Shown here piece after piece: positions 13,704-38,975 of a stretch of DNA of 64,000 nt. The DNA is from Candidatus Poribacteria bacterium (GTDB taxonomy: Bacteria > Poribacteria > WGA-4E > WGA-3G), in the NCBI GenBank assembly GCA_965197475.1, contig CBDANF010000002.1:1280001-1344000 (forward strand). Direction: 5' to 3'. The position numbers were made by a program, and so were the translations under genes. The notes under the pieces are model-generated. The model was not told the origin of the DNA, made no database searches, and worked only from the letters and a program-made list of their open reading frames with translations. The number at the start of each line of letters is the position of its first letter. The first letter of the stretch is position 1.

Positions 13704-13891
13704 ATAAACACTCCTTACTAAATTCATTTACTATTGTGACGTTTTCTCTACCTTTCGGTACAGGTTTAAATTTCTCGCTTGAGGAGAGGTTTCACAAGAA
13801 ACCTAAGAGGCATCATTCGTATCAACGTATCACCACTCTATGCACAAAGGCAAATCGCTCAAACGTAGTTATACACTTAACAGATACGTTT

Positions 13892-22756: not shown

Positions 22757-23530
22757 ATGCTTACGCAAAAACAGAAGTTAGAATTCCATGAAAATGGTTA
22801 TATTAAAGTCTCTGGTGTTGTGCCAAAGTTAATGATAGATGCTGCTCGTAAAATCATTAATCATTCTATCGGTGCTGTGGGACTGCACGAAGACGACTTA
22901 GAAAAGTTTCGGGCACAATCGTATTGTAACGAAATTAGGAACGCCCCGCAAATTGTGGATATTTTCCATAAAACACCTATCCATAACATTGCTGAATCGA
23001 TGCTGGGTGAAGGCAACGTGCAAGTCCCAGGTTCAGGACAGATAGCACTCCGATTCCCGATGCCGTTAGACCGCGATGCGAATGAACCACGCGGACATCT
23101 GGATGGATTGGGAAGTGGGACAAATGGAATGGCAAAAGGTGTTTACCGTCGCGGTTTTTCTGCGTTAGCGGTTGTGTATCTGGCAGATGTGCCTGAACCG
23201 TATAGCGGTAACTTTACGGTGTGGCCCAAAACGCACAGTTTTTTCGCTGACTATTTCAAAAAGGAAGGGCATGAGATTTTGGCAAACGGAATGCCGCGTC
23301 CGGAACTTCCTGAAGGTCCCACCCAGATAATCGGCAAAGCGGGAGATGTGGTTTTGACACATCACCAGATAGTCCACTCAGCAGCACCGAATGCATCGGC
23401 TGACATTCGTTACGCTGTAATCTTCCGTGTGCGGCATGTGGATTGTGCAGAAAACGGGTATGATGGTTACACCGATATCTGGCGTGAATGGCCTGGTATA
23501 CAGGAAGCGATAGAAAACGGAAATGCCTAA
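22757..23530 (+). CDS. Phytanoyl-CoA dioxygenase (PhyH)-family Fe/2OG enzyme
   Basis: FHENGY, HLDG, GNFTVWPKTH, GDVVLTHHQIVH, R. Confidence 0.88.
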   Translation: MLTQKQKLEFHENGYIKVSGVVPKLMIDAARKIINHSIGAVGLHEDDLEKFRAQSYCNEIRNAPQIVDIFHKTPIHNIAESMLGEGNVQVPGSGQIALRFPMPLDRDANEPRGHLDGLGSGTNGMAKGVYRRGFSALAVVYLADVPEPYSGNFTVWPKTHSFFADYFKKEGHEILANGMPRPELPEGPTQIIGKAGDVVLTHHQIVHSAAPNASADIRYAVIFRVRHVDCAENGYDGYTDIWREWPGIQEAIENGNA

Positions 23531-23576: not shown

Positions 23577-24395
23577 TTACTTTGTGCTCTTGATTTGTGC
23601 CCATGTAATGCTCAATTTGTCCACAGGTTCGACTGCAAATGGATCCCCATTGGATAAATAGAGGTTTTCCACCTCATCTGCAGAAAGTGCTCGGTGGAAC
23701 ATTAGGAACTCATCCATCAATCCTTTGAATGTCCACGACGCGGGAGTCGCGACACCATTAAATGCTGTGGCTTCAGAACCAACCCCGATGAATCCGTACC
23801 GTTGTAATTTCGGTCCGATCATTTTATTAGTAGTAGCTGTGGCTTCCTCTACATCCACTTTACCATCAACATAGATCCGCTTCATATCGGCATTAAAAAT
23901 TGCCACGACATGATGCCATTGATCGTCCGTAACTTTAACATTACCATGCCAATCCTTTATAGGACAACAGACATCAAAAGCGACAAAGTCCGTCTGATCG
24001 ATTGCAACATCTCCAGCTGCAAAACGGAAATAGTCGCTGCGATCCCAAGAGGCAATCATCCCTCTATCAACAGTCTTAATCCATACCGCGATGCTAAGTT
24101 CCGGTATACCTTCGGTATAATTGAGATTTCGCACTGAGATATATTCGGTTGCCCCACCAGGAAATTCCATACATTCGTTAACTTTGCCATCATTCACAAT
24201 ATTGAGATTGCTGCCGTGGAGGAAACCGTCATTTCCGGACCCATCCAAGATATCTTCACCCTTAAGGGAGGCAGCGTCAAAACTATAATAGATGACCAGT
24301 TCTTTATCACTTATACCCCGCGCGTGGACAGTCAACGTTGGTACTGTTAGAATTAGTGTTAGCGTCAATAGTTGGAAAATCAAAGAGGTTTTCAT
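23577..24395 (-). CDS. Secreted LamG (concanavalin A-like) domain protein
   Basis: Signal peptide, YYSFD, WHHVV, IYVDG, FKGLMDEF..RALS; C-terminal AVEPVDKLSITWAQIK. Confidence 0.9.
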   Translation of the reverse strand: MKTSLIFQLLTLTLILTVPTLTVHARGISDKELVIYYSFDAASLKGEDILDGSGNDGFLHGSNLNIVNDGKVNECMEFPGGATEYISVRNLNYTEGIPELSIAVWIKTVDRGMIASWDRSDYFRFAAGDVAIDQTDFVAFDVCCPIKDWHGNVKVTDDQWHHVVAIFNADMKRIYVDGKVDVEEATATTNKMIGPKLQRYGFIGVGSEATAFNGVATPASWTFKGLMDEFLMFHRALSADEVENLYLSNGDPFAVEPVDKLSITWAQIKSTK

Positions 24396-24416
24396 TTTAG
24401 GTCTCCTTAATTATTT

Positions 24417-24662
24417 TACTAAAGTTTGGACAATTTACGCGTTATTCATGTAGACTTCTCAAAGGTAGTGGCTGTTCTCGCCAAAAACCTGTTATATTTT
24501 CTGCGATTTTGCTGATTGGAAGAACTCCCTGAAAAATACATCTTGGCATGGCAGTCCGAGCAGAGCGACAGATGTATAGAAGATAATTAGGTTAATGTCT
24601 AAGATGTTTCCATTTTACCCTCTACACATTGAAGTCCTTTAAAATTTGTCCAAACTTTAGTA
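24417..24662. mobile_element. 246-bp MITE with TIR TACTAAAGTTTGGACAA
   Basis: Perfect 17-bp terminal inverted repeats starting and ending in TA; a related right end lies at about 48055-48127. Confidence 0.8.
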
Positions 24663-24681
24663 GGTGGTAACTTGGGTTATT

Positions 24682-25506
24682 TTATTTCGTACTCTTAATC
24701 TTTCCCCATGTGATGCTCAATTTGTCCGCAGGTTCAACGGCAAGCGGATTCCCAGACGCATTAGCAAGACGTTCAACCTCTTCTGCAGAAATTGCTCGGT
24801 GGAACAGAAGGAATTCATCCATCAACCCATTGAAAGCCCAATTGGGTCCTACGACCGCATCAAAAGCTGCAGCTTCTGAACCAATTCCGATGAATCCGAA
24901 CCGTGCTGTCTTCGGTCCTATCAATTTAGTGGCTGTGTCCGTGGCTGCCTCCGCATCCAATTCACCATCAACGTATATCCGTTTCATTTCAGCATCAAAG
25001 GTTGCCACGACATGATGCTATTCGTCATCAGCAACATCAATCTTACCAAACCAATCCTTTATAGGGCAACAAACATCAAAAGCAACAAAGGTTGTGGCTG
25101 CGTTCCCACCCATGTCATCGCCTACAGCAAAACGGAAGAATTCACTCCGATCCCAAGAGGCAATCAAACCTCTTTGCGGTGTCTTTACCCATACCGCGAG
25201 CGTCAGTTCCGGAATACCTTCAACATATTGGAGATTACGTACCGAAATATAATCGGATTGAGCCCCTGGAAACTCCATACATTCGTTAACTTTGCCCTCC
25301 ACAATCTTGAGACTGTTACCTTTGAGCAAACCGTGATTCTCATTTCCGGATCCGTCCAAGACATCTCCATCTTTAAGGGTATCCTCGTCAAAGCTATAAT
25401 AGATGACAAGTTCATCTGCACTGATACCCTGTGCATGACCAGTCAACGCTGGGACTGTTAGTATTAGTGTTAACGTTAAAAGTTTGAAAATAAAAGCGGT
25501 TCTCAT
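24682..25506 (-). pseudogene. LamG-domain paralog interrupted by an in-frame TAG at a conserved Trp
   Basis: DDE*HHVVATFD aligns with DDQWHHVVAIFN of 23577-24395; both track ORFs share one frame. Confidence 0.85.
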
Positions 25507-25576
25507 TATAGTACTCCTTTTATAGTATGCGCTTTTACTAGTATGCGCTTTTACAAGCTCGTAAATTATAGTTAGC

Positions 25577-26407
25577 CTAAGAATATCCTCCTACACCCAA
25601 CAACATCCGTTCCTCCATATCTGCTTCTTTGAGAAAGGTTTGGGTTAACCCGTCTGCAGGTGGATCGCCGCCGTGTGGCGACCTTCACAGCCACGTCGGC
25701 GTATAACCAAGAATTAACATTCTCCGCTTTGAGCGAAGTGTTAGCAAAGCACGATGCCAGAGATTACCGTGGATAAGTACGGCACCGCCAGATCTCACTT
25801 GAAGTGGTACTTCGCCATCTATCGGTTTATATGTACTAGGCGTTGCCTTGTCCAACCAGTTGTGAGAACCGGGGACAACAACCGCACCAGTATCTTCGTT
25901 TAAATCATCAAGATAGATAAGACAATCGATACAGTGTGGTCGTGAAAACCATGGTGGTATCGGGTTAGAGACAACACGCATGTGTTGATGCCAGGGCGTT
26001 TGGTGTTGTCTGTCATCGCCAGGATAAGTGATTCGTGCGCTCAATCCGCGTAGTCGAACAAGCGGTCCCATCATTGCCCGTACTATTGATAAAACCGGTT
26101 GAAATTTCAGAAGTTCAAGGAATGCTTCGTCCTTATCCATCAAATGACGCGGAATGAACCCCCAACTACGTTTGGAGGCAAGAGCGTTATCACGTTTTTC
26201 CCATTCTCGCGCTTCCAATCGGTCAAGGGCATCTCTTAGTTTTTGAAGTGCCTCTCCCTGAAAGAGTCCTTCTCAAATAAGGTAACCGGTCTCAGCAAAT
26301 GTTTGCAACTCTTCGCGGGTAGCGTGCACTTTCACGTCCCAATGTTGTCCGGTTTCACCCGGGTTATGGACATTTAGTACTTCGTAATGAAGTGTGTGTT
26401 GTTCCAT
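25577..26407 (-). pseudogene. PhyH-family dioxygenase with two in-frame TGA stops
   Basis: One frame reads MEQHT...GYLI*EGLF...WHQH...VPGSH...HGNLWH...PTWL*RSPHGG...GGYS*; TGA at 26273-26275 and 25685-25687. Confidence 0.8.
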
Positions 26408-26461
26408 AATTGTCTCGCTATGTGCAGTTTCTGTTGACGTGGCAAGGCACCTCATATTGTG

Positions 26462-27250
26462 CTACTTTTTCAAAAATTCTCCTGGAAGACGCGAACCGGG
26501 ATAGTTGCCATTTTCATCTCGATTAGCAATCGGTTCAGGAATCTCGTCATTCCAATAGCCTGGAACGGTGTTTGGTCTGCTGTGCCATGCCAAGATTAAA
26601 GTTCGTCGTTTATTAGTATGATTTCTGTGGGCAGCGTGTAAGAGACGCGCATCCGCCATCATTAATGAGCCCGCTTTGGCATACACATCCACCTGATCTG
26701 GATGATCACTAAACATGATCGGATGGTCTTCATCAATAAACCGTGCACCCTGTTCATGTGCGGGTACTAACTGGTCGTGAAAATCAATCCGCTTGAGATG
26801 GGTGCCGGGAATTACCTTTAAACATCCGTTTTCAGGTGTAGTATCCGTCAGATAGTAATTGAGAAAAATGGTCTGTGGCCAGGGGGAACAGCTGAGCGGG
26901 TCGTTCCAACGCATCCAATCTTGATGCCAATACAGTGCGGGTCCGCCAGGTTCTTTCGTTAATATGATAATCCCGCCGGAGGCAACGAAATCTCCAAAAC
27001 CGATCTGTTTCAGTGCGTCCCATGATGGTTGCCACTCCAGCAACCGCAGTATATACGGGTTGTCTGCACCACGTACATTTACGTGTTGTCCCTGATAGAC
27101 CATTTCGTCTGGTTCCACGTGTCCTGTGATGAGTCGTTCCGATTCATCGTGCAGCTCCTGCAAGAATTCATCCGTTAAAATATCGTCAACAACGCAAAAG
27201 CCGTCGCGCAGCATATGTTCCCGTTTTTCTAAGGCGACTTCAGGTGTCAT
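26462..27250 (-). CDS. PhyH-family dioxygenase
   Basis: DGFCVV, WHQD, NGCLKVIPGTH, LLHAA, RR. Confidence 0.92.
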   Translation of the reverse strand: MTPEVALEKREHMLRDGFCVVDDILTDEFLQELHDESERLITGHVEPDEMVYQGQHVNVRGADNPYILRLLEWQPSWDALKQIGFGDFVASGGIIILTKEPGGPALYWHQDWMRWNDPLSCSPWPQTIFLNYYLTDTTPENGCLKVIPGTHLKRIDFHDQLVPAHEQGARFIDEDHPIMFSDHPDQVDVYAKAGSLMMADARLLHAAHRNHTNKRRTLILAWHSRPNTVPGYWNDEIPEPIANRDENGNYPGSRLPGEFLKK

Positions 27251-27452
27251 TCAATTTGCCCTCAAAGTTTTGAATTTATCCAATTTTATACAAAATTGCT
27301 TAAAAATACAACAATTTTTTATTATTGCTAAGTTTGCAAAATGACTTGATGTAAATTTTAAGGTGAAATTGTTTGCTAAATGTGGTAATATATTCTACAG
27401 TATATACGTACATCTAATGCAAGAATTGCGTTATAAACATGGAGGAAGAAAT

Positions 27453-27659
27453 ATGGGTGTCCCTGGCATACCGGAATTATTGATTATATTAGTGATAGTG
27501 CTGCTCCTATTTGGCTCAAAGAAGCTGCCTGAATTAGCACGCGGGCTTGGCAAAAGCATCACAAACTTTAAATCCGGGCTCAACGAAGAGCAGACAGACG
27601 AAACCGAAACCATCGCACAACAGGAAAAAGAAACATCACAAAAAGAGGAAACTGGCTAA
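27453..27659 (+). CDS. tatA: Twin-arginine translocase TatA/TatE
   Basis: GIPELLIILVIVLLLFGSKKLPELARGLGKSITNFK; GGAGG RBS. Confidence 0.95.
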   Translation: MGVPGIPELLIILVIVLLLFGSKKLPELARGLGKSITNFKSGLNEEQTDETETIAQQEKETSQKEETG

Positions 27660-27671
27660 TTTTAACCGAAA

Positions 27672-28001
27672 ATGAAAGATAAATTACCTGACTTTCTTCA
27701 GGGGGTGATAGAAGAATACCCTGAAATTTGGAAAGCATATCAGGCATTAGGCGAAACGTGCGGCACCGCCGGACCTCTTGAACCCAAAACTGTGAGGCTT
27801 GTCAAACTTGCATTGGCTATTGGCGCGAAGTCTGAAGGTGCTGTACATTCGCATACTCGACGGGCACTCCGTGAAGGTATCACGCGAGAGGAGATACAAC
27901 AGGTGGCACTGCTTGCAGTGACATCCATCGGTTGGTCATCAAGTATGGCATCCTTATCTTGGATTCAAGATGTCGTTAATAAACATTTACAGTCAGATTG
28001 A
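27672..28001 (+). CDS. Carboxymuconolactone decarboxylase/AhpD family protein
   Basis: GPLEPKTVRLVKLALAIG, HSHTRRALREGITREEI. Confidence 0.88.
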   Translation: MKDKLPDFLQGVIEEYPEIWKAYQALGETCGTAGPLEPKTVRLVKLALAIGAKSEGAVHSHTRRALREGITREEIQQVALLAVTSIGWSSSMASLSWIQDVVNKHLQSD

Positions 28002-28041
28002 GAATATTAGCATGGAAGTAGTTTATAAACGACGAAATTCC

Positions 28042-29283
28042 ATGTTTGCTAAGATTGCCTGTGGGGTTTTAATCCTCACTACTACTTTGTTGCTCACTCC
28101 ATCTATTAGTAGAACTGAAACAGCAGTATCGGAAATGCAACAAGGACTGGAATACGTCAAACTCCGACTCTACCCGCAGGCAGTTGATACCTTCAAATTG
28201 ATCTTATCGCGAAAACCGACAGATATTAACGCGCTTTTTCAATTGGCGAATGTCTACAAATTACAAGATGAGTTGGAATTAGCGATAGAAACGTTCAACA
28301 AGATTTTTGCAATCGCAGAGTCGAAAAATATATTGGCAATAGATCGGATTTTTGGATTTACGCATCTTGCGCTGGCTGAAATTTACTGTAAACAGAGCAA
28401 GTTAGACATGGCTGAGCAGCATGCGATGGAGGCAGTTCAGATATGCGCTACGGATGCTGATACACATTACCGACTCGGTTATATTTACACACATCAGGCA
28501 AAGTTTGATAAGGCACTCTCAGCGTTTAAGCGAACACTTACACTCAAACATGATTTTGCTGAAGTCTATGAATGGCTCGGCTTGATTGCGCTTATGCAGC
28601 ACAAACCGAAGCAAGCGATAGCACACTATAAAGTTGCAATCCAGAAAAAGCCTTATGTTCAGAGTGCCTACTATAACCTTGCGAAAGCTTACCGTATCCT
28701 CGGCGATATGGAATCCGCAAAGGAACAACTAAAGTTATTCCAACAGATGAAGACCTATTACGACAAGACTTATGCTATTGAAGGTTCTTTGGCGGAAAAT
28801 CCATCAAACACAACGTTACGACTGAAATTGGCAGAGATACATGTAGCGCACAAGCATTTCTCAGCAGCAATTGCCGCTTACCAAGCACTGATTCGGTTGA
28901 ATCCAGAATTTATAACAGGATATGACAAATTGGGAAGGCTCTATATGGAACTTAATATACCACAGCGCGCAATACCGCTTTTCCATAAGGTAATAAAATT
29001 AAATCCTGATGCTGTAGAAGCACATGTTCGGTTGGGATGGCTACATACAGTAGAAAAATCATTTGACAAGGCAGAAACACATCTGAAAAAGGCTATAGAA
29101 AAAATGCCGAAACTTACTTTAGCGTATCACGGGTTAGCAGAAATTTATACACAACAGGGGCACATCGAAAAAGCGATTAAAATCTATAAACATATCACAC
29201 AAATTGAACCTGACGATAGAGATGCTTGGACGGCATTACACAAATTGGAACGTATGAAAAAGGGAGGACAAACGAAGCAATAA
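28042..29283 (+). CDS. Exported tetratricopeptide repeat protein
   Basis: Signal-like N-terminus and many TPR units (HYRLGYIY, YYNLAKAY, HVRLGWL); start uncertain (28012 or 28042). Confidence 0.85.
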   Translation: MFAKIACGVLILTTTLLLTPSISRTETAVSEMQQGLEYVKLRLYPQAVDTFKLILSRKPTDINALFQLANVYKLQDELELAIETFNKIFAIAESKNILAIDRIFGFTHLALAEIYCKQSKLDMAEQHAMEAVQICATDADTHYRLGYIYTHQAKFDKALSAFKRTLTLKHDFAEVYEWLGLIALMQHKPKQAIAHYKVAIQKKPYVQSAYYNLAKAYRILGDMESAKEQLKLFQQMKTYYDKTYAIEGSLAENPSNTTLRLKLAEIHVAHKHFSAAIAAYQALIRLNPEFITGYDKLGRLYMELNIPQRAIPLFHKVIKLNPDAVEAHVRLGWLHTVEKSFDKAETHLKKAIEKMPKLTLAYHGLAEIYTQQGHIEKAIKIYKHITQIEPDDRDAWTALHKLERMKKGGQTKQ

Positions 29284-29295
29284 GTTTTCTATAGG

Positions 29296-31014
29296 TTGTC
29301 GGTTATTTTTATGTTAAAGATTAACCACCATTTTTACACGCCGTATCTCTATCTCCTATTCATATTAGCACTCATCACTAAGTTTATAGGTTTTCAAAAC
29401 TGTGTTCCCGCTTCAGCAGAATCAATTTTTGTTGACGTTACCGAGTCTGCGGGCATCACGTTTGAACATACCGATGGTAGAAGCGGTAAAAGGCTTTTCA
29501 ATGAATTTCTCGGTTCTGGCGGCGGTTTCTTCGATTATGACAATGATGGGGACCTTGACATCTATCTTGTGAACGGTGCAATTCAGACAGGCAACGCCCA
29601 AGACAAAACACAACATAACGTACTCTACCGAAACAACGGTGATGGCACGTTCACCGATGTCACCGAAAAAGTAGGCGTGGGTAGTACAGCTTACGGCACA
29701 GGTGCTACCGTTGGTGACTATGATAATGATGGTGATCTTGATCTTTATGTTACTAATTTTGGTGGAGATCAACTTTATCAAAACAACGGAGACGGCACTT
29801 TTACAGATGTAACAAAGCAGGCTAAGGTCGGCAACCAAAACTGGGGAACGAGTTGTGCTTTTGCTGATGTTGATAACGATGGGGATTTAGACCTTTATGT
29901 AGCGAACTACGCCGCATATAATCCGAAGGATGATAAACAGTGTAAGGAACGAGGTGTACATGTCTATTGCGGTCCTCATGCCTACCCTGCAGTTCACGAT
30001 ACTTTTTACAAAAACAGTGGCGATGGCACGTTCACCGATGTTTCTACCACATATCGCCCCTCTGACCTGATCCCTCAGCACGGGTTAGGTGTAACATTCG
30101 GAGATTACGACGGTGATGGTGATTTAGATTTATATGTGGCAAACGATCAAGATCCGAACTTTCTATTTCAAAATGATGGAAAAGGTAAATTTTTAGAGGT
30201 TGCATTAATTTCTGGTGTTTGCTACAATGATATGGGAAAAGAAGAAGCTGGAATGGGTACTGATTTCGGTGACTATGACAACGACGGGAAACTTGACATT
30301 ACTGTCAGCAACTACCAGACAGAAACGAATACCCTTTACCATAATCACGATAGCGATTTTTTTATTGACAATACTATTGCATCAGGAATAGCTGAGGTGA
30401 CACACGGTTACCTCGGATGGGGTATCAAGTTTTTTGATTATGATAACGATGGGTACCAAGACATTTTTGTAGCAAATGGCCACTTGATGGATAACATCTC
30501 TGTGCTTGAAAAGCACGTGACCTATCCGCAAAGGAATCTGTTGTTTAGGAATTTGGGTGATGGCACGTTTGCCAATGTCATGTCACAGGAAGATGGTTTA
30601 ACCTTGAAAAAGGTCAGTCGTGGTGCCGCTATCGGCGATTACGACAATGATGGTGACCTTGATATTCTTGTTACCAACTGCAATCAACGTCCGGATCTGC
30701 TTCAAAACGTTGTTGGTAATCGAAATAATTGGGTGCAAATTCAGGTTGTCGGACAGAAAAGCAACCGTTCTGGCATTGGCGCAAAAATAAAGGTTGTGGC
30801 CGGAACACACGTCCAGTATCGTGAGGTACAAAGTGGTGGGAGTTATCTCTCTTTTCATGATCTACGTGCCCATTTTGGTGTTGGAAAAGCGGAACAGATT
30901 GAACTTCTTGAGATTCGATGGCCTACTGGTCAAATTGACAGAGGCACACACCTTCCCGCCAACCAAAGGTATTTAGTTGTTGAAGGAGACAAAATCGTTC
31001 CGATTCAACAATGA
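29296..31014 (+). CDS. CRTAC1-like FG-GAP/VCBS repeat protein with ASPIC/UnbV domain
   Basis: Repeated DYDNDGDLDLYV and NNGDGTFTDV; C-terminal SNRSGIGA...GSYLS...HFG...IRWP. Confidence 0.92.
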   Translation: MSVIFMLKINHHFYTPYLYLLFILALITKFIGFQNCVPASAESIFVDVTESAGITFEHTDGRSGKRLFNEFLGSGGGFFDYDNDGDLDIYLVNGAIQTGNAQDKTQHNVLYRNNGDGTFTDVTEKVGVGSTAYGTGATVGDYDNDGDLDLYVTNFGGDQLYQNNGDGTFTDVTKQAKVGNQNWGTSCAFADVDNDGDLDLYVANYAAYNPKDDKQCKERGVHVYCGPHAYPAVHDTFYKNSGDGTFTDVSTTYRPSDLIPQHGLGVTFGDYDGDGDLDLYVANDQDPNFLFQNDGKGKFLEVALISGVCYNDMGKEEAGMGTDFGDYDNDGKLDITVSNYQTETNTLYHNHDSDFFIDNTIASGIAEVTHGYLGWGIKFFDYDNDGYQDIFVANGHLMDNISVLEKHVTYPQRNLLFRNLGDGTFANVMSQEDGLTLKKVSRGAAIGDYDNDGDLDILVTNCNQRPDLLQNVVGNRNNWVQIQVVGQKSNRSGIGAKIKVVAGTHVQYREVQSGGSYLSFHDLRAHFGVGKAEQIELLEIRWPTGQIDRGTHLPANQRYLVVEGDKIVPIQQ

Positions 31015-31061
31015 TTATTAAAATAAATGCCTACTAAGGCAAATTAAAAAGGAGGTACAAA

Positions 31062-31847
31062 ATCAAAAGCTTATTTATTATGTTAACGCTTTTAACGCTT
31101 GTGGCATCTTTCGCGCATGCAGCAAATGAACCAGAGGATGCGCTCATTCTCTATATGTCTTTTGATACAATTGATGGAATACAGACGATTGACCATTCAA
31201 AGTATGAAAACCACGGTGAAATGATGGGAAACCCACAACACGTTGAAGGAAGATTCGGTAAAGCTCTTCAATTTAACGGTGTATCCGACTATGTTGAAAT
31301 TCCACACCATGAAACACTTACCGTGGATCAGGATGTCACGGTCATGGCTTGGATTCATACTGAGAGGCATACAGGACCTGATAACGCGCAATGGCAAGGT
31401 ATCTTGGCAAAGGGGAACAACCCACGTTCTTATAGTTTCTGGACTGAGGAAAAGAGTAAGTGTTTGCACTTCAGTGTAGGTGCACCTAATGGTGGTAGTG
31501 TCTGCCACCAAGGTGAAGTCAAGCTAAACGAATGGCAACATGTTGTGGCACAAGTGAATAGTGGAACCCACCGTTATTGGATTAATGGGGAAAAAGTTGG
31601 AGAAACCGGTAACAAACCGGACCCACCTGGCTTAGAGGATACATCCCCTGTCGTCGTTGGAACTGCAGGCGGAGGTAATAAACGATATTTCCTCGGTATG
31701 ATTGACGAAGTCCGCATCTGGAACCGTGCGCTTACTGAAGAAGAGGTGAATGAACAGATGGAAAAAGGGCATTTCGCACTTTTTCCTGTTGACCCGCGCC
31801 AAAAATTAGCTACAACGTGGGGAAACCTGAAAACACAACAGCGATAA
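31062..31847 (+). CDS. Secreted LamG-domain protein; homologous start codon is ATC (next ATG at 31080)
   Basis: Close paralog of 32965-33735; GGAGG lies 6 nt before an in-frame ATC. Confidence 0.85.
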   Translation: MKSLFIMLTLLTLVASFAHAANEPEDALILYMSFDTIDGIQTIDHSKYENHGEMMGNPQHVEGRFGKALQFNGVSDYVEIPHHETLTVDQDVTVMAWIHTERHTGPDNAQWQGILAKGNNPRSYSFWTEEKSKCLHFSVGAPNGGSVCHQGEVKLNEWQHVVAQVNSGTHRYWINGEKVGETGNKPDPPGLEDTSPVVVGTAGGGNKRYFLGMIDEVRIWNRALTEEEVNEQMEKGHFALFPVDPRQKLATTWGNLKTQQR

Positions 31848-31932
31848 AATGGACGATCATCTTGATTCGTCCTCAAGAGAGTTTCTGCTGAATTTGTAAC
31901 AAGTGCTTGCGGAGACTCTTTAAATCTATAAC

Positions 31933-32050
31933 AGGACTTACGCAAATTTGAAGTAGCAGCAAAATTGAGTCTGCATTTCTAAAGAACGCGCAATAAATTG
32001 TGCTACTACAAACACAGAAACGCTTGAAAACAAGCAGAATGCGTAAATCA
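31933..32050. mobile_element. MITE-like element with AGGACTTACGCA-type ends
   Basis: AGGACTTACGCA...TGCGTAAATCA; short copy at 32885-32931; contains a REP-like GCAATAAATTGTGCTACTAC also seen near 1756 and 20471. Confidence 0.6.
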
Positions 32051-32054
32051 ATAA

Positions 32055-32340
32055 TAGACATTATAATGATTTAATCGTCCGTCCCTGATATCACTAATAC
32101 CGAAATATAGTCTAAACGCTAATGGCTTGTCCGTCGGGTAGAGTTTGCGAAACCCGACATGTTTGTTCTGAATGTCAAGTGTTCAGATGGTGGAAGTTAC
32201 CGTTTTATAGATTGCGAAATCTGCTATATTATCTCTGGAACCCTGATATTGTCGGGTTTCGCTGCGCTCTACCCGACCTACGAACTTTAGATTTTATTAT
32301 AAACCAGTAACAACACACAATTAAAACGTTATAATGTCTA
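32055..32340. mobile_element. 286-bp MITE (TIR TAGACATTATA) carrying an inverted REP pair
   Basis: TAGACATTATAATGATTTAAT...ATTAAAACGTTATAATGTCTA; internal GTCGGGTAGAG..GCGAAACCCGACA and its reverse complement; second copy at 52126-52306. Confidence 0.8.
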
Positions 32341-32360
32341 ATATATTTTAAAAATTATGT

Positions 32361-32389
32361 TTGACATTTTTTTGAAAGTTTTGTATAAT
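32361..32389 (+). promoter_or_regulatory. Perfect consensus sigma70 promoter
   Basis: TTGACA-17 nt-TATAAT. Confidence 0.8.
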
Positions 32390-32536
32390 TATAAATATAA
32401 ACAAGTTCAAGAAATTAGTGTGATAGAACTCTTGACATGGTTTGTCTGCAAAAAAACTTTTTATCCATTTTAGGCAGATATAAAGGGATTGTTGTTTGAT
32501 GGTATCGGGACAGATGCTCAAACATGGCAAAGGATA

Positions 32537-32827
32537 ATGCAAAATACTAATACTAACCGCAATGTTGAAAAAGCGTCCTCAATTAGATTAGGTCAACACC
32601 ACAGTTGGTCTATTCCTACTTCTTCCACGCCTTCAGCATCACTCATTTTGCGACCCCCCCCCCCCCCCCAGTTAACGATTGTAATAGTATTTCAGTTACA
32701 AATAGGCGAATATCGGTTCGGACCATCAGTCTTTTGTCGCGCCCGCACGCTCTCAATTGGACATTGTGAGTTTTGTTGCGAGCTATTTTGTTTGCAGAAG
32801 GTGGGTATTCCCACCCAATATTCATGA
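32537..32827 (+). other. Short ORF or leader with a C16 homopolymer (32654-32669); possible phase-variable leader remnant
   Basis: AAGGA RBS, ATG at 32537, MQNTNTNRNVEK...LILRPPPPP; 16 consecutive C. Confidence 0.45.
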
Positions 32828-32884
32828 ACACAACGCATGAGTGTTTTTAGTGTTATTTTAGGAACTCTAACCGTAAACTTAATC

Positions 32885-32931
32885 AGGACTTACATAGATT
32901 TGGGTGCCTACTTTTAAAGTGCGTAAGTCCT
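32885..32931. mobile_element. Minimal 47-bp AGGACTTAC...GTAAGTCCT element
   Basis: Terminal inverted repeats of the same family as 31933. Confidence 0.65.
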
Positions 32932-32964
32932 ATCTATAATTAATCTATAATTAAGGAGGAAAAC

Positions 32965-33735
32965 ATGAAAACTCTATTTATGATGTTAACAATTATTGCG
33001 TTTGTGGCTTCTTTTGCCCACGCGCTGAATGAACCAGAGGAATCGCTCATCCTTTACATGTCTTTTGATACGGTTGATGGGAAAAACACAATTGACCATT
33101 CAAAGTATGAAAACCATGGCGAAATGGTGGGTGACCCGAAACATGTTGAGGGCAAATTCGGTAAAGCATTAGAATTTAACGGCACATCCGATTGGGTTGA
33201 AATCCCGCATCATGAGACGCTCACTGTTGATAAGGATGTCACGGTCATGGCTTGGATTCATACTGAGAGGCTTACGGGACCCAATAACGCGCAGTGGCAA
33301 GGCATCCTTGCAAAAGGCAACGCTCTCCGTTCCTATAGTTTCTATACTGAGTCAAAAAGTAAGTGTTTGCACTTCGTTGCCGGTGCCGGAAGCGTCTGCA
33401 ACGGGGAAGTCAAGTTAAACGAATGGCAGCATGTCGCTGCGCAGACGAGTGATGGAACACACCGGTATTGGATTAACGGTCAGAAGGTTGGTGAAGTCGG
33501 CGGCAAAGCACCACCGCCAGGCCAAGCTGATACAGCCGATGTCCTTATTGGGAAAACACATGAACCGGCTCGCGAATTCCTTGGATTAATCGACGAGGTG
33601 CGCATCTGGAACCGGGCTCTCTCTGAAGAAGAGATTGTTGAGCAAATGGAAAAAGGGCATTTTGAGCTCCTTCCTGTTGACCCACGCCAGAAATTAACAA
33701 CGACGTGGGGAACCCTAAAGACTCAAAAACGATAG
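32965..33735 (+). CDS. Secreted LamG-domain protein
   Basis: GKFGKALEF, TVMAWI, WQHV, GLIDEVRIWNRALS; tail PVDPRQKLTTTWGTLK. Confidence 0.92.
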   Translation: MKTLFMMLTIIAFVASFAHALNEPEESLILYMSFDTVDGKNTIDHSKYENHGEMVGDPKHVEGKFGKALEFNGTSDWVEIPHHETLTVDKDVTVMAWIHTERLTGPNNAQWQGILAKGNALRSYSFYTESKSKCLHFVAGAGSVCNGEVKLNEWQHVAAQTSDGTHRYWINGQKVGEVGGKAPPPGQADTADVLIGKTHEPAREFLGLIDEVRIWNRALSEEEIVEQMEKGHFELLPVDPRQKLTTTWGTLKTQKR

Positions 33736-33825
33736 TTACAACTAACAGTGATAAGGTTTACTTTTATCACTATAATTTTTATATCACTACTTCGGGATTT
33801 CCGAAGTTAAATTTGGAGGAAAATA

Positions 33826-34596
33826 ATGAGGTTTTTGTTTGTTGTATTAACCCTTACCGTGTTTGTTGCTTCTTTCGCTCACGCAGCAGAAGAATCGGAT
33901 GAATCGCTCATCCTCTATTTCTCTTTTGATGAATTAGATGGGGACATGGCGGTTGACCATTCGCAATATGGGAATAATGGCACTGTAAACGGTGCTCCTG
34001 AGCTGGCAGATGGTAAGTTTGGAAAGGCTCTGAAACTTAACGGAGAAACAGACTGGGTTGAAGTGCCACATGCCGATATTCTTACCGTTGAAACAAGTGT
34101 AACCGTGATGGCATGGATTAATGCTGAAAGGCACATGGGACCGAATAACCAACGTTGGCAAGGTATCCTCGCAAAAGGGAACAGTCCGCGCTCTTATAGT
34201 TTCTACACCGAATCCCCAAGTGAATGTTTGCACTTCGTTACGGGAAGTGGTAGTACCTGCGCGGAAAAAATTGCCCTCAATAAGTGGCAGCATGTTGTTG
34301 GGCAGTCAGATAGTGGCACGCATAGGTATTGGCTTAATGGTGTAAATATCGGTGAATTTGGTGGTAAAGGTGCTTTACCGGGAGCTGCGGATACCTCTAA
34401 CGTCTTCGTCGGAACTACAGCCGAAGGTGCTAATAGAAGGTTCCTTGGCTTGATTGACGAGGTCCGTATCTGGAACCGTGCCCTCACCGAGGAAGAAGTT
34501 ATCATGGAGATGGAAAGCGGATATCAATCCGGAACAGCTGTCGATCCACGGGCGAAATTAGCCATGACTTGGGGTACCATAAAATCCCACAAATAA
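33826..34596 (+). CDS. Secreted LamG-domain protein
   Basis: Third tandem paralog; tail AVDPRAKLAMTWGTIK. Confidence 0.92.
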   Translation: MRFLFVVLTLTVFVASFAHAAEESDESLILYFSFDELDGDMAVDHSQYGNNGTVNGAPELADGKFGKALKLNGETDWVEVPHADILTVETSVTVMAWINAERHMGPNNQRWQGILAKGNSPRSYSFYTESPSECLHFVTGSGSTCAEKIALNKWQHVVGQSDSGTHRYWLNGVNIGEFGGKGALPGAADTSNVFVGTTAEGANRRFLGLIDEVRIWNRALTEEEVIMEMESGYQSGTAVDPRAKLAMTWGTIKSHK

Positions 34597-34626
34597 CGGA
34601 TTGACAGTTATAATTCACGTATTTCT

Positions 34627-34656
34627 TGTAGGTGAACTCGGTTGGGTTCACCTACA
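34627..34656. terminator. Hairpin after the LamG cluster (terminator or REP-like)
   Basis: TGTAGGTGAAC...GTTCACCTACA inverted repeat. Confidence 0.55.
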
Positions 34657-34725
34657 TCCTTTCAGATGTGGCAGAAATTGAAGTTGATAAAATCCTCTGA
34701 TAAATAAAAGGAGAATACATAAAAT

Positions 34726-35127
34726 ATGAACGGAAAATTTATATCATCCGAAGAGGTTGAAAGAGACCACTTAGATTGGGGAACAATAGGTTGGCTCAGC
34801 CGTCCAGAAACCACAGGTGCAAAAGATATCGTCGCAATGGAAGTTAGTCTCTCCCCCGGATACGGGCATGATTTTCATAAACATCCCGATCAGGAAGAGG
34901 TTATCTACGTTATAGAAGGCAGCGTTGAGCAGTGGCTTGAAGATAAGAAGCAAACGCTAAACGCAGGTGACTCTGTCTTCATCGCAGCGGACGTTGTTCA
35001 CGCATCTTTTAATGTTTCAAATCAACCTGCGAAGTTATTTGTTACGCTGAGCCCCAGTAAGGGAGAAGAAGGATATCAACTCATTGATGTTTATGATGAA
35101 GCACCGTGGAATACCCTTCGCTCATAA
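34726..35127 (+). CDS. Cupin-domain protein
   Basis: HDFHKHPDQEEVIYVIEG...GDSVFI...VVH. Confidence 0.9.
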   Translation: MNGKFISSEEVERDHLDWGTIGWLSRPETTGAKDIVAMEVSLSPGYGHDFHKHPDQEEVIYVIEGSVEQWLEDKKQTLNAGDSVFIAADVVHASFNVSNQPAKLFVTLSPSKGEEGYQLIDVYDEAPWNTLRS

Positions 35128-35226
35128 TTGAAACTAATTAGGTTCCTTTCAGACCCTCGCACTTTTTCTTGTTTTCCTGTACCCAAACGGATATAATTTA
35201 TTAAACCTTTTTGGATTTGGACAAAT

Positions 35227-36057
35227 ATGCTTGACACACCCATACCTGAAACACCATTGCAACTCCGTCAGCGGATGCGCGAATTCTATGAAACATCAGA
35301 AACCTATAAAGACCTCTTAGCTGCACATGACGAAGTCTACCTCCGACACTACGTAGAATTGGTAACCCGTTATGCACCATCAGGTTCCAAGATTTTGGAT
35401 CTCGGGTGCGGGAACGGTATTTCCGCTCAACTGCTAAATCAGGCGGACTATGATGTCGTTGGGACTGATATATCGCCGCTTTTTCTTGAGGAAGCGCGGA
35501 ATTGGGAAAATCCGAGACTACGATATCAAGTGTGTGATGTTGTGGAGTTACCGTTTGAGAATGCGTCCTTTGATGTTATCTGTTCAAACGAACTCATAGA
35601 ACATCTGCCTGATGTAGAGACAGCATTAAATGAGATGATTCGTGTTGTACGCAAAGGCGGGAAGGTTGTGCTTTCCGGACCAAATCTTTGTTCACCCTTA
35701 ACACCTTTCCTTGATTGGGTCCGTCTGATGTGTGGTAAACCGGGCAGACCCGTTTGGGGAGAAACAAAGCGGCAAGCATTGCAACAATTTAAGCGAAACT
35801 GTGGACTCTACATAAAAAAGCGTTTCTTGACAAAAACACCTCACTTTATTTATCGCAACCCGGATCTACAAGCAGATGCTATCGGTGGCGATGCTGACAG
35901 TGCCTATTACGCTAACCCAATTGATCTTGCTCAATTTTTTAAGCTGAACGGATTTAGCATAGTCAAAAAATCTGTTGGCTTTGGCATAAAAGGCAGAATT
36001 ATTGCGAGCATGTTTCCGTATTTGAGTCCTTATATCACTATGGTTGTCCAGAAATGA
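35227..36057 (+). CDS. Class I SAM-dependent methyltransferase
   Basis: ILDLGCGNG, GTDIS, LPFENASFDVI, IEHL. Confidence 0.92.
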   Translation: MLDTPIPETPLQLRQRMREFYETSETYKDLLAAHDEVYLRHYVELVTRYAPSGSKILDLGCGNGISAQLLNQADYDVVGTDISPLFLEEARNWENPRLRYQVCDVVELPFENASFDVICSNELIEHLPDVETALNEMIRVVRKGGKVVLSGPNLCSPLTPFLDWVRLMCGKPGRPVWGETKRQALQQFKRNCGLYIKKRFLTKTPHFIYRNPDLQADAIGGDADSAYYANPIDLAQFFKLNGFSIVKKSVGFGIKGRIIASMFPYLSPYITMVVQK

Positions 36058-36890
36058 ACATTCGTGCAAACGATTTTGTTTTAGAAATTGGAAGCGGGCA
36101 CAACCCCAAAATACGCTCTGATGTTTTATGCGATAAATTTATGGATGATGACGAACAGCGCGGCGGTATAATTGTTGCGGACCGACCAATGGTGGAAGCG
36201 GATGGGCAGTTTCTGCCTTTTGCAGATGGGGCGTTTGACTATGTGATATGTTCACATGTTTTGGAACATGTTGAAGATCCGGATTTACTTGTATCCGAAT
36301 TGATGCGTGTAGCACCCCGCGGCTATATTGAAACACCCTCCGAAATTGGAGAACGTATCTACGGATGGCATTATCACAACTGGGTAGTTAACCTAATTGA
36401 CGGTCGTTTGGTGTTACAAAAAAACGATAAGCGAACCGAATTTGGACAACTTTTCCACACGTTGGCGGCAAAAGATAAGCATTGGAAGCGATTCCACATT
36501 ATGCATCACCGTATTTTCCTTGTCCAGTATGAATGGGAAGGCAAGATAGACTACGAAATATCGGACGGGAAGGAGTCGCCACTGAATTTGAAATGTCCGC
36601 AGACTATTGAAGAACTTCTAACACCCAAGGTTTCGGAGCAAACCCATAAAGGTTTTTGGTTAATTCTTAAAAGTGTGGTTCCGCGCGGTATTGTATCTCG
36701 TGCAAAATCGCTTTTAGCAAAAAGTAGAAGCCGCCAAACCAAAACATTAAAGGAAATTATCGCCTGTCCGCAGTGTAAAGGCGAAATTACATGGCAGGAA
36801 CAAAACCTACATTGTAATAAATGCAATCGGTTTTATCCGGTTATTGATGGAATTCCGAGATTTACCGTAACTCCAGGGAATTCTCTGTAA
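36054..36890 (+). CDS. Methyltransferase-domain protein with C-terminal Trm112-like zinc ribbon
   Basis: VLEIGSG, LPFADGAFDYVICSHVLEHV; tail IIACPQCKG...CNKCNRFYPVIDGIP; ATGA overlap with the upstream gene. Confidence 0.85.
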   Translation: MNIRANDFVLEIGSGHNPKIRSDVLCDKFMDDDEQRGGIIVADRPMVEADGQFLPFADGAFDYVICSHVLEHVEDPDLLVSELMRVAPRGYIETPSEIGERIYGWHYHNWVVNLIDGRLVLQKNDKRTEFGQLFHTLAAKDKHWKRFHIMHHRIFLVQYEWEGKIDYEISDGKESPLNLKCPQTIEELLTPKVSEQTHKGFWLILKSVVPRGIVSRAKSLLAKSRSRQTKTLKEIIACPQCKGEITWQEQNLHCNKCNRFYPVIDGIPRFTVTPGNSL

Positions 36891-36974
36891 TCTCTAAAAC
36901 ACCTAATCTTAACGCTTCATCTTTCTTGAGAAAACTTAGGTTATAACAACCTGCAAAAGAGGAACATATAAATA

Positions 36975-38975
36975 GTGAAAAATATTTACACTTATTTGGC
37001 AATTTTAATAGCGGTGTTTAGTAGTTCGCTTAATGTTGGCTTTGCACAAGAAGATCCGGCGGCTGCGTGGATGCCAGATTCAATTCTGCGGAAAGTCGTG
37101 CGGAGAGCCCTTGAGTTGGATGCGGATGTTGAACTCACGCAAGAAGCCTTAAAAGGGTTGACAGAATTGAATACTCACTATCGTGCGTTTCGGGACCGTG
37201 GAGACGGATTTATTGCCGATATCACCGGTTTAGAATATGCAACAAATTTAGAATTGTTAGTTCTTGTGCCGGAAGCGATTAGCGATATTAACCCGCTTGC
37301 GGGATTAACCAAATTAACATGGTTAGACATAACCTCCAACCAGATCAATGATATCAGTGCCGTGGCAGGATTGGTGAACCTCACAGCATTGCAGCTTAAT
37401 GGAAATCCTGTAGCCGACCTTAGTGTGATAACAAATTTAACGAAACTAACCATACTTAATATTCCGGATTCTATCATAGACGACCTTAATTTGCTCCAGG
37501 AGATCCTACGAAAGAATCCGAATTTAACAAGTGTGAATTTCGTTTTTGATATTCGTAACATCGTCAAGACTCAAATCACCAAGATCGGTTTTTCAGAGGA
37601 GGCACTGCAAACCTACACTGAAGGAGATGAGGTTCAAGTAAATGTGACATTTGACGCGGATGGAACGCGCCATGCTAATGCTAAACCCTACGTGACTGTG
37701 TATATGGGAGAGCAAATCCCAGAGAATGAGCGACAGGCAGAATGGACATCTTCAAAAGATACCAATTCAACGGAGGTAACATTTATATATGAGGTGCTCC
37801 CTGGCGATGATACGTCCAGTGTGACAATAAAACCAAATAGCTTTACAGTTCCTAAGGGGTCATTCATTGTTGACAACAATGGCACCTTTGTTCATGGGGG
37901 CACTGGGGATCAACAGTCAATTGTGACTATTCCTACTTCCGCAGACGTTTATGTTCCTATTGTTGGCACATTGCATCTGATCGTTTTTAGCGAATTTTTA
38001 TTTCAACCTATAAATGAAGTCCATTCAGTGCCACAATGGATTGAGGTCTACAACACGAGTGAAGCTGATATGAATCTACGAGGATGGCAATTAAAGTTAG
38101 AACGTCATGCAGATTATCCCATAATCAATCAACAAGGCGAAAAACCTGTTTTAGAACGCACAGTGCAGATTCAGACAGATTTTATTGTTCCTGCTCGCGA
38201 AACACGTTTAATCGTTACATCCTCAGGACGGAATTCTGGTGGGAAAGCACTTGAGTCTGGACAGGTCTATAATTTATTCGATCACCACTCTGTTGAACTC
38301 AATCAGAACACAGACAATAAGAATAGTGTGATCGTCGCAGACGGCTTTTCGCTCAAACTCCTTGATGCTGACAATATACTTATTGATATCATCGGGAACT
38401 TAAATGAAGATGGGAACACCGTATGGGAAATCCCTAAACGCCTCCTTAATATTCGTGTATCGTTGATACGGCGTTTCGATGAAGGCACACCTCGTCCAGG
38501 AACAGAACGGCGGGGATGGATACCCGCGGATAAGGTGAAAAATCAGCCTAAAGATATTTACTATGGACACAGTTTAGATATTGGCGCGCCTGGGTATCGT
38601 AGCAAGAGTAACCCATTACCTGTCAATTTATCAGTCTTTACAGTGAATGTTGTTTCAGGTAATATCGTTATCGAATGGATAACGGAATCGGAATTAAACA
38701 ACGCTGGTTTTTATGTTCTGCGGAATCCAGCGCGTGAGGGGAATTATGAAGTGCTCAATGCCAAGTTAATTCCGGGGGCAGGCACGACAGGTGAGCGTTC
38801 AGCTTATATGTTTACAGATACAACTGCCGTACCTGGTGTTGTATATTATTATCAACTTGTGGATGTGTCGTATAGTGGTATCCGTAACGTGCTTGGAACG
38901 CAACGGTTACGGGGCACCCTATCGCCAGTTGGGAAACGTATAACGCAATGGGGCAACCTGAAAAACAATAAATGA
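36975..38975 (+). CDS. Secreted internalin-like LRR protein with lamin-tail-like domain
   Basis: WMPD..LR, ITGLEYATNL, ISDINPLAGLTKL; FSEFL..QWIEVYN..NLRGW; LPVNLS..F..W.TESELNNAGF; tail KRITQWGNLK. Confidence 0.82.
   Translation: MKNIYTYLAILIAVFSSSLNVGFAQEDPAAAWMPDSILRKVVRRALELDADVELTQEALKGLTELNTHYRAFRDRGDGFIADITGLEYATNLELLVLVPEAISDINPLAGLTKLTWLDITSNQINDISAVAGLVNLTALQLNGNPVADLSVITNLTKLTILNIPDSIIDDLNLLQEILRKNPNLTSVNFVFDIRNIVKTQITKIGFSEEALQTYTEGDEVQVNVTFDADGTRHANAKPYVTVYMGEQIPENERQAEWTSSKDTNSTEVTFIYEVLPGDDTSSVTIKPNSFTVPKGSFIVDNNGTFVHGGTGDQQSIVTIPTSADVYVPIVGTLHLIVFSEFLFQPINEVHSVPQWIEVYNTSEADMNLRGWQLKLERHADYPIINQQGEKPVLERTVQIQTDFIVPARETRLIVTSSGRNSGGKALESGQVYNLFDHHSVELNQNTDNKNSVIVADGFSLKLLDADNILIDIIGNLNEDGNTVWEIPKRLLNIRVSLIRRFDEGTPRPGTERRGWIPADKVKNQPKDIYYGHSLDIGAPGYRSKSNPLPVNLSVFTVNVVSGNIVIEWITESELNNAGFYVLRNPAREGNYEVLNAKLIPGAGTTGERSAYMFTDTTAVPGVVYYYQLVDVSYSGIRNVLGTQRLRGTLSPVGKRITQWGNLKNNK

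Follow-up and report, generated by a model that had tools for sequence, protein, structure and literature searches.

The stretch of DNA examined here (the window) comprises 64,000 nucleotides, positions 1,280,001 to 1,344,000 of contig CBDANF010000002.1 in the Candidatus Poribacteria assembly GCA_965197475.1, and it raises the question of why six of its genes end in nearly the same short peptide. The original prediction, made from the sequence alone, took this tail for an undescribed protein-sorting signal. Each of the six tails appears to be a copy of one flexible C-terminal peptide, about 17 residues long and found across the phylum, and this peptide is part of a C-terminal sorting region of the kind that type IX secretion systems (T9SS) use. 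We will discuss the peptide and the proteins that carry it, its position relative to the T9SS signal, and the machinery that may read it.

A terminal peptide on unrelated exported proteins

Translation reproduces the six predicted termini at the stop codons at 23577 (-), 24682 (-), 31847 (+), 33735 (+), 34596 (+) and 38975 (+), with one of the genes carrying an internal TAG codon. In five of the six proteins (255-272 aa) the passenger is a LamG domain (PF13385), and Pfam bears out the claim that the sixth (666 aa), which consists of leucine-rich repeats (LRR) and a lamin-tail domain (LTD), is unrelated to LamG. All six translations were said to begin with a signal peptide, and each does start with a hydrophobic, signal-peptide-like N-terminus, that of the protein at 31080-31847 being without a basic n-region.

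The consensus of the tail is L-[APS]-V-[EDS]-[PA]-x-[GD]-K-L-[AT]-T-T-W-[GA]-x-[LI]-K plus 1-6 residues. The source genome (5.70 Mb, three contigs) yields 41,122 six-frame reading frames of at least 50 aa, in which a loose regular expression for the tail gave 62 matches, 55 of them in the last 25 residues. When the residues were shuffled, five times over, 0-3 matches were left in total and none was terminal, and a chance origin of the tail is therefore excluded. A hidden Markov model (HMM) of the tail was anchored on Trp and iterated once, its 91 seed rows being chosen for Trp. Searched against the whole genome at i-E<=1 it found 114 frames, 113 of which end within 30 aa of the stop codon and 107 within 10 aa; at i-E<=1e-3 the numbers are 92, 91 and 87. 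The strictly C-terminal position that the original prediction had proposed to check is thus seen in 113 of 114 frames. Lys at -5 and Trp are invariant across the 91 seed rows (which were picked for Trp), Val at -10 occurs in 86 of them, and G, A or S directly follows Trp in 89 of 91 tails. Past the last Lys there are 1-6 residues in 91 of 93 tails (mode 3, never 0), and Arg and Lys make up 35% of these residues. Tail-only variants without Trp were looked for in the genome and none was found. An outer-membrane-protein beta-signal has a terminal aromatic, usually Phe, as its last residue; this identity was rejected for the tail, which ends in F, Y or W in only 13 of 93 cases and in R, K or Q in 61.

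When the tail is removed, the 113 passengers fall into 28 blastp groups (45, 21, 12, 4 and 3 members, five pairs and 18 singletons). Pfam families found on 32 representatives include LamG, LTD, cadherin with dockerin, WD40, LRR, PD40, CBM9, CBM_4_9, F5/8 type C, Ldl_recept_b, 3keto-disac_hyd and NPCBM with a metallopeptidase, and 9 of the 32 have no Pfam family. With 28 groups and at least 12 Pfam folds, the view of the tail as a portable unit of 18-20 aa on unrelated passengers with signal peptides is upheld. A crude signal-peptide rule, also suggested as a check, was satisfied by 69 of 83 tail frames of at least 200 aa vs 991 of 3559 other frames, a background rate that marks the rule as permissive. 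Lipobox-like strings occur in 4 of the 83 frames, all within the hydrophobic core. The carriers number about 110; they are Sec-exported and for the most part binding proteins rather than enzymes. Turnover of the tail gene families seems to be rapid.

LamG proteins make up most of the carriers in the window, which might suggest that the motif is an integral strand of LamG or another passenger fold, or even a DNA element such as a terminator or a recombination site. This reading, which we consider scarcely credible, is refuted by the passenger folds, the codon data and AlphaFold2 (AF2). The tail is found behind at least 12 unrelated Pfam folds. In the AF2 model of the LamG protein encoded at 32965..33735 (mean predicted local distance difference test score, pLDDT, 84.4) residues 28-235 are confidently placed and the tail, residues 236-256, scores below 50, which argues against the tail being integral to the LamG fold; the PF13385 matches stop 14-31 residues short of the C-terminus in the window LamG proteins. 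Codon positions 1 and 2 of the conserved tail residues are fixed, and position 3 has an entropy of 1.6-2.0 bits, that is, synonymous positions vary freely. The tail is under selection as a peptide. Additionally, in an alignment of 34 sequences (a window LamG protein, its homologues and paralogues of 25% identity) the 20-residue tail accounts for 4 of the 10 invariant columns.

The tail has no transmembrane helix, as had been claimed: the maximum of a 15-residue Kyte-Doolittle window over the last 30 aa is 1.41 (median 0.33) and none of 111 tails reaches 1.6. It also matches no characterized sorting domain among the families searched. On the window proteins neither Pfam nor NCBIfam (E<=1) has a model that extends over the tail, and NCBIfam at E<=10 gave no family for the last 40 aa of three tail proteins, a search in which HMMER filters may hide very weak matches. 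PF18962, PF13860 and TIGR04183 match neither the six window proteins nor 32 tail-only representatives. Dockerin_1 (PF00404) matches over no tail, and the sole dockerin in a tail protein (locus L004, residues 400-447) is internal.

The tail profile matches all 41 relatives, with 59 to at least 150 matches each, and all 176 sampled genomes of the phylum (11 families, 31 genera), so the proposed scan of genome and phylum gave 113 terminal frames here and matches in every genome sampled. A pattern scan of GTDB species genomes gave at least 564 stretches, of which 261 were confirmed and 78 loci kept; among the matches listed, 76 of the 78 loci are titled Candidatus or uncultured Poribacteria and two 'uncultured bacterium'. 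In 89 loci of other genomes (78 + 11) all 120 Trp-type tails end within 10 aa of the Lys. Literature searches on the motif and on sorting, type IX secretion or secreted proteins in Poribacteria brought up no description of the tail; the supplementary tables of PMC3909097, which give domain counts, might include the proteins but not the motif.

The junction with the T9SS-type C-terminal domain

In the T9SS that have been studied, the C-terminal domain (CTD) of the cargo is needed for transport across the outer membrane and for presentation to the sortase PorU. The CTD family PF18962 matches at 31 places in the genome and a custom CTD HMM finds 54 frames, in 6 of which the FlgD_ig/Por_Secre_tail domain is preceded, at a distance of 2-4 residues, by a tail-like motif. 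The last 140 residues of one protein with both tail and CTD find a match in 61 of 61 genomes of the order, and most of the matches listed begin at residue 30-34, which is the start of the tail. Tail and CTD are both present in 30 of 30 loci that were fetched from the order with the tail+CTD query. The original prediction had treated the tail as a separate alternative to FlgD-like tails, and this part of it did not stand. Since the motif lies just upstream of the CTD in the 6 frames and the 30 loci, the tail is part of the T9SS-type C-terminal sorting region.

Before the CTD, 19 of the 30 loci retain the Trp of the motif and the other 11 have L, I, F or S at its position; the Gly that follows is nearly invariant in this form too. 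The tail+CTD alignment has a fixed register, in which Trp (or its substitute) stands 12 residues ahead of the YPNPF Tyr and the last Lys of the tail is at -8. CTD proteins that lack the tail have in common with tail+CTD proteins the junction P-K-x-T-A-L-L-x-N-Y-P-N-P; among 50 frames, T is at -6 in 34, L at -4 in 40, L at -3 in 35 and K at -8 in 21. The TIGR04183 match begins after the tail in tail+CTD proteins (residues 43-122 of 126). An AF2 model of a tail+CTD sequence gives the CTD a pLDDT of 85-94 and residues 1-49, including the tail, below 50. According to these models the tail is flexible behind LamG and before the CTD alike.

Three other relations between tail and CTD were considered and rejected. 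Packing of the tail in cis on the CTD finds no support in the low scores of residues 1-49. The tail could be a mini-CTD that mimics the last CTD strands; an hhalign comparison of the tail profile with the CTD profile gave a probability of 0.5%. Read-through or frameshifting into a downstream CTD is at odds with the 600 nt that follow tail-only stops, which hold no CTD-like sequence in 111 of 113 cases and an out-of-frame one in the other two.

PorU sortases in Bacteroidota cut the CTD off at the junction. Cargo cut at that point would have a C-terminus almost identical to that of a tail-only protein. The sortase sites mapped in Prevotella intermedia are in the coil that joins passenger to CTD; their consensus is PT/GI, and a small residue is favoured at +1 (PMC11969387). 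By analogy with those sites, cleavage at T|A-L-L would leave the tail and about two further residues, as tail-only genes encode. The tail would be the part of the signal that is retained after removal of the CTD, and the tail-only proteins would form a CTD-less, 'born-cleaved' class. Through a T9SS-type attachment component or a cell-surface partner, the tail would direct the protein to the outer envelope or keep it there. We tentatively favour this reading, in which the tail probably stays on the mature protein as an envelope address or anchor that is read by T9SS-type attachment machinery or by the cell surface, and on our analysis its chance of being right falls a little short of even. The position of the cleavage, the binding partner, the final location and the passage of tail-only proteins across the outer membrane are the steps that we infer.

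Two of the tail-only genes, C3:3318902-3320245 (LRR, 447 aa) and C3:1501841-1503967 (LTD, 708 aa; C2 and C3 denote contigs of the genome), are followed by out-of-frame CTD remnants at C3:3318300-3318902 and C3:1501300-1501841 (110 and 73 bits). They invite the view that tail-only genes are T9SS cargo that lost the CTD and were left with a functionless peptide, a view to which the fragment-like nature of 30 of the 113 tail frames and the enrichment of insertion sequence (IS) transposases nearby would also lend weight. We regard it as very improbable, and it is disfavoured by the selection data. Of the 10 invariant columns in the LamG alignment, 4 belong to the tail, Trp never varies in tail-only proteins and does vary before CTDs, terminal tails are found in all 176 phylum genomes, and CTD-like sequence is missing after the 111 stops mentioned above.

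The remnant beside C3:3318902-3320245, together with its downstream sequence, matches places elsewhere in the genome where the 3' end of a CTD gene is joined to an IS-like repeat of about 2 kb. The two genes either lost their CTD precisely at the junction or had an IS-linked CTD fragment land beside them. The repeat measures about 2.0-2.27 kb and has about 19 copies of 90-99.8% identity (C3:3316618-3318882, C3:1504088-1506352 and C2:964781-967044 among them). It contains two open reading frames (ORFs) of about 270 and 294 aa (a family of 34) and lies immediately 3' of the ends of CTD-encoding genes; its right end is sharp and its left end is ragged, reaching into CTD coding sequence.

Machinery and gene neighbourhoods

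The genome encodes three PorU-like giants of 1744-2186 aa, each with its own CTD, at C3:62315-68770, C2:1199232-1205792 and C3:3901209-3906443. These candidate sortases score 371-412 bits with NF033707 and 270-299 bits with Peptidase_C25, and they exceed the 1095-position PorU model by about 600-1000 aa. C25 giants are found in 41 of 41 sampled phylum genomes, with 1-4 in each. There are also five barrels of the PorV/PorQ family (e.g. C3:3543578-3544549), four of which are above the NF033709 cut-off and one of which directly follows a PorU-like gene, and a SprA/Sov-like protein of 2140 aa (C3:1988941-1995363; TIGR04189, 157 bits). Two giant ORFs with CTD-like ends, C3:3976555-3992204 and C3:1397784-1414404 (4849 and 5203 aa), are each directly followed by a PorV-family gene, and these pairs resemble cargo with its own outer-membrane partner. 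A single-cell study from 2014 reported finding no structural Por genes in Poribacteria (PMC3909097).

These genes bear on whether the tail is itself cut. The tail might be a minimal sortase substrate, in which a PorU-like C25 protein cuts inside the tail, for example between Trp and the next small residue, so that a peptide of 5-10 residues is released and the new C-terminus is joined covalently to a surface glycan or lipopolysaccharide (LPS), as a helix-less counterpart of LPXTG. Trp is followed by G, A or S in 89 of 91 tails, in agreement with the small residue that T9SS sortases favour at +1 (PMC11969387), and the near invariance of Gly at this position extends to the pre-CTD form. At least one residue, usually 2-3, follows the last Lys, as would be needed for a leaving group, and PorU-like paralogues are at hand here (three) and in each of the 41 sampled genomes (1-4). 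However, the PorU that has been studied acts on CTD cargo held by PorV at the cell surface, and tail-only proteins have no CTD. The T-A-L-L junction, which is present with or without the tail, is the likelier generic cut site, and it lies after the tail. We consider cleavage inside the tail unlikely. A related proposal, that the tail alone is sufficient for a PorU-type sortase or a PorV-type shuttle and represents a helix-less class of sorting signal of about 17 residues, is doubtful, if slightly less so.

Neighbouring genes were screened for a reader of the tail within three genes on either side of 97 tail genes, a set of 446 neighbours. Members of the FG-GAP/ASPIC family that are not themselves tail-only proteins were enriched (5 of 6, p about 5e-5 before correction), and one member has both tail and CTD. 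A cytoplasmic winged-helix (wHTH) family of about 1140 aa was near tail genes in 3 of 3 cases, IS1 transposases in 7 of 20 and DDE transposases in 7 of 27. Sortase, exosortase and rhombosortase genes were not enriched near tail genes. The three wHTH proteins (C3:3310379-3313807, C3:3863748-3867107 and C3:2687399-2690911; 1119-1170 aa) have only a weak AbiEi-like winged helix at the C-terminus, all adjoin tail or CTD genes, and may be part of a mobile element.

That no T9SS gene is enriched beside tail genes is what one would expect if the tail were a docking peptide independent of the T9SS, that is, a non-covalent ligand of a receptor domain on a surface scaffold, S-layer or glycan, comparable to dockerin and cohesin. 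Its presence before CTDs would then only mark the end of the passenger. A flexible peptide that has an invariant Trp and two Lys and is borne by more than 100 passengers of the binding type would suit such a role, and the genome also has modules of the cohesin and dockerin kinds, together with giant CTD-anchored proteins as potential scaffolds. No candidate receptor was identified, however, and the fixed register with the CTD (12 residues from Trp to Tyr, with a Lys at -8 that is common to tail-less CTD proteins) exceeds what a marker of the passenger end needs. In our judgement docking of this kind is as improbable as cleavage within the tail.

Several points weigh against the reading that we favour, in which the tail is a retained part of the T9SS signal. 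The main weakness is the route out of the cell, which is unexplained for tail-only proteins because they lack the CTD that is needed in the studied T9SS. Only 6 of the 54 CTD proteins here carry the motif, and since Trp is also replaced in 11 of the 30 loci, the tail-only and pre-CTD forms may be non-equivalent. AF2 predicted no contact between tail and CTD. The 30 tail frames shorter than 200 aa, none of which satisfied the signal-peptide rule, look like fragments. With respect to the machinery, the PorU-like proteins (371-412 vs 420 bits) and the SprA-like protein (157 vs 200 bits) are under the NCBIfam curated cut-offs, and GldL, GldM and GldN were not detected in the genome, a search in which control genomes were equally silent. 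The neighbour screen found no enriched secretion or processing gene within three genes of the 97 tail genes, and no reader was found.

The coordinates of the window features are included in Table 1. The LRR/LTD protein groups with 20 other tail proteins when the tail is removed. The TAG at 25018-25020 in the second LamG gene stands where a paralogue has Trp. One public DNA run (X2) has C at 25019, which restores TGG (Trp), and another (X1) keeps T; what the window holds is thus a nonsense allele, the gene being intact in other respects. Intact and nonsense alleles of this gene coexist in public data. Two RNA libraries contain contigs over parts of tail genes, which is a weak hint of expression as such libraries can hold DNA and contigs show no level; one contig spans 31793-32056, overlapping the end of the third LamG gene, with no differences. 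That gene is the last in a row at 27970-31847, where it follows a TPR protein (27970-29283) and an FG-GAP/ASPIC protein (29296-31014). The ORFs at 22757-23530, 25685-26218 and 26462-27250, which are interleaved with LamG-tail genes, we take to be phytanoyl-CoA-dioxygenase-like from the look of their translations; the N-terminus of the second appears truncated.

Table 1. Tail-bearing genes of the window, their tails, and a comparator gene with a T9SS-type CTD.
Feature	Position	Strand	Basis and remarks
Gene 1: LamG protein, 272 aa, signal peptide and terminal tail	23577..24395	-	PF13385 residues 81-242; tail HMM 32.1 bits, match ends 3 aa before stop
Tail of gene 1, last 19 residues	23580..23636	-	Translation, tail HMM
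Gene 2: LamG paralogue with tail, in-frame TAG at 25018-25020	24682..25506	-	Translation
Tail of gene 2, last 19 residues	24685..24741	-	Translation, tail HMM
Gene 3: LamG protein, 255 aa, terminal tail	31080..31847	+	PF13385 residues 67-224
Tail of gene 3, last 20 residues	31785..31844	+	Translation, tail HMM
Gene 4: LamG protein, 256 aa, signal peptide and terminal tail, AF2-modelled	32965..33735	+	Translation, Pfam, AF2
Tail of gene 4, last 20 residues	33673..33732	+	Translation, tail HMM; AF2 pLDDT below 50
Gene 5: LamG protein, 256 aa, signal peptide and terminal tail	33826..34596	+	Translation, Pfam, tail HMM
Tail of gene 5, last 19 residues	34537..34593	+	Translation, tail HMM
Gene 6: LRR and lamin-tail-domain protein, 666 aa, signal peptide, Fn3-like pre-tail domain, terminal tail	36975..38975	+	LRR 90-145, LTD 346-474; tail HMM 22.6 bits
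Tail of gene 6, last 18 residues	38919..38972	+	Translation, tail HMM
Comparator (locus L038): cohesin / Ig-like / spondin-N protein, 922 aa, T9SS-type CTD end without tail	10959..13727	-	Pfam Cohesin, FixG_C, Spond_N, FlgD_ig, Por_Secre_tail

Known sorting signals and significance for Poribacteria

The closest known system is the type A CTD of the T9SS (PF18962/TIGR04183). Like the tail, it is found at the extreme C-terminus of Sec-exported proteins with diverse passengers. The tail is in a fixed register with YPNPF, and the genome encodes PorU-like, PorV-family and SprA-like genes. The beta-sandwich of 70-90 aa that forms the type A CTD is, however, absent from more than 100 tail proteins, and the two profiles are unrelated by hhalign (0.5%, as given above). 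To our knowledge, known T9SS biology explains neither the export nor the processing of proteins that have the junction peptide alone. The tail sits in the flexible coil before the CTD, as do the P. intermedia sortase sites (PMC11969387).

The tail can also be compared with signals of other types. The tripartite signals (LPXTG/sortase, PEP-CTERM/exosortase and GlyGly-CTERM/rhombosortase) consist of a motif, a transmembrane helix and a basic cluster. They resemble the tail in being short C-terminal motifs on many unrelated exported proteins of one lineage, with a few basic residues at the end and dozens to hundreds of copies per genome. They differ in that the tail has no hydrophobic helix (0 of 111) and only 1-6 residues past the motif, and the distinction from LPXTG and PEP-CTERM drawn in the original prediction was correct. 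Dockerin is likewise a portable C-terminal module on many passengers, this genome contains it, and an arrangement in which one scaffold takes up many clients, as with dockerin and cohesin, could apply to the tail. Unlike the tail, which has about 17 flexible residues and no Pfam match, a dockerin folds into a Ca-binding domain about 60 aa long.

Beyond the motif, the analysis gives the fixed register at the junction, sets it beside the mapped sortase sites, surveys the genome for PorU-like, PorV-family and SprA-like genes, and gives negative results for the profile and fold tests. A tail placed exactly at the CTD junction also offers a natural experiment on which features are recognized when type IX secretion attaches its cargo. 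If the tail alone is sufficient for the sortase or the shuttle, more than 100 proteins per cell would be anchored at the surface by type IX machinery without a CTD, and attachment would be uncoupled from transport.

Poribacteria are dominant, uncultured symbionts of sponges, and their eukaryote-like binding proteins (LRR, WD40, cadherin, LamG and LDL-receptor repeats) are thought to mediate contact with the host. As a single peptide label on roughly 2% of the proteome, the tail would tell where the poribacterial binding proteins go. The tail HMM would be a simple handle with which the surface and secreted repertoire of these symbionts could be catalogued.

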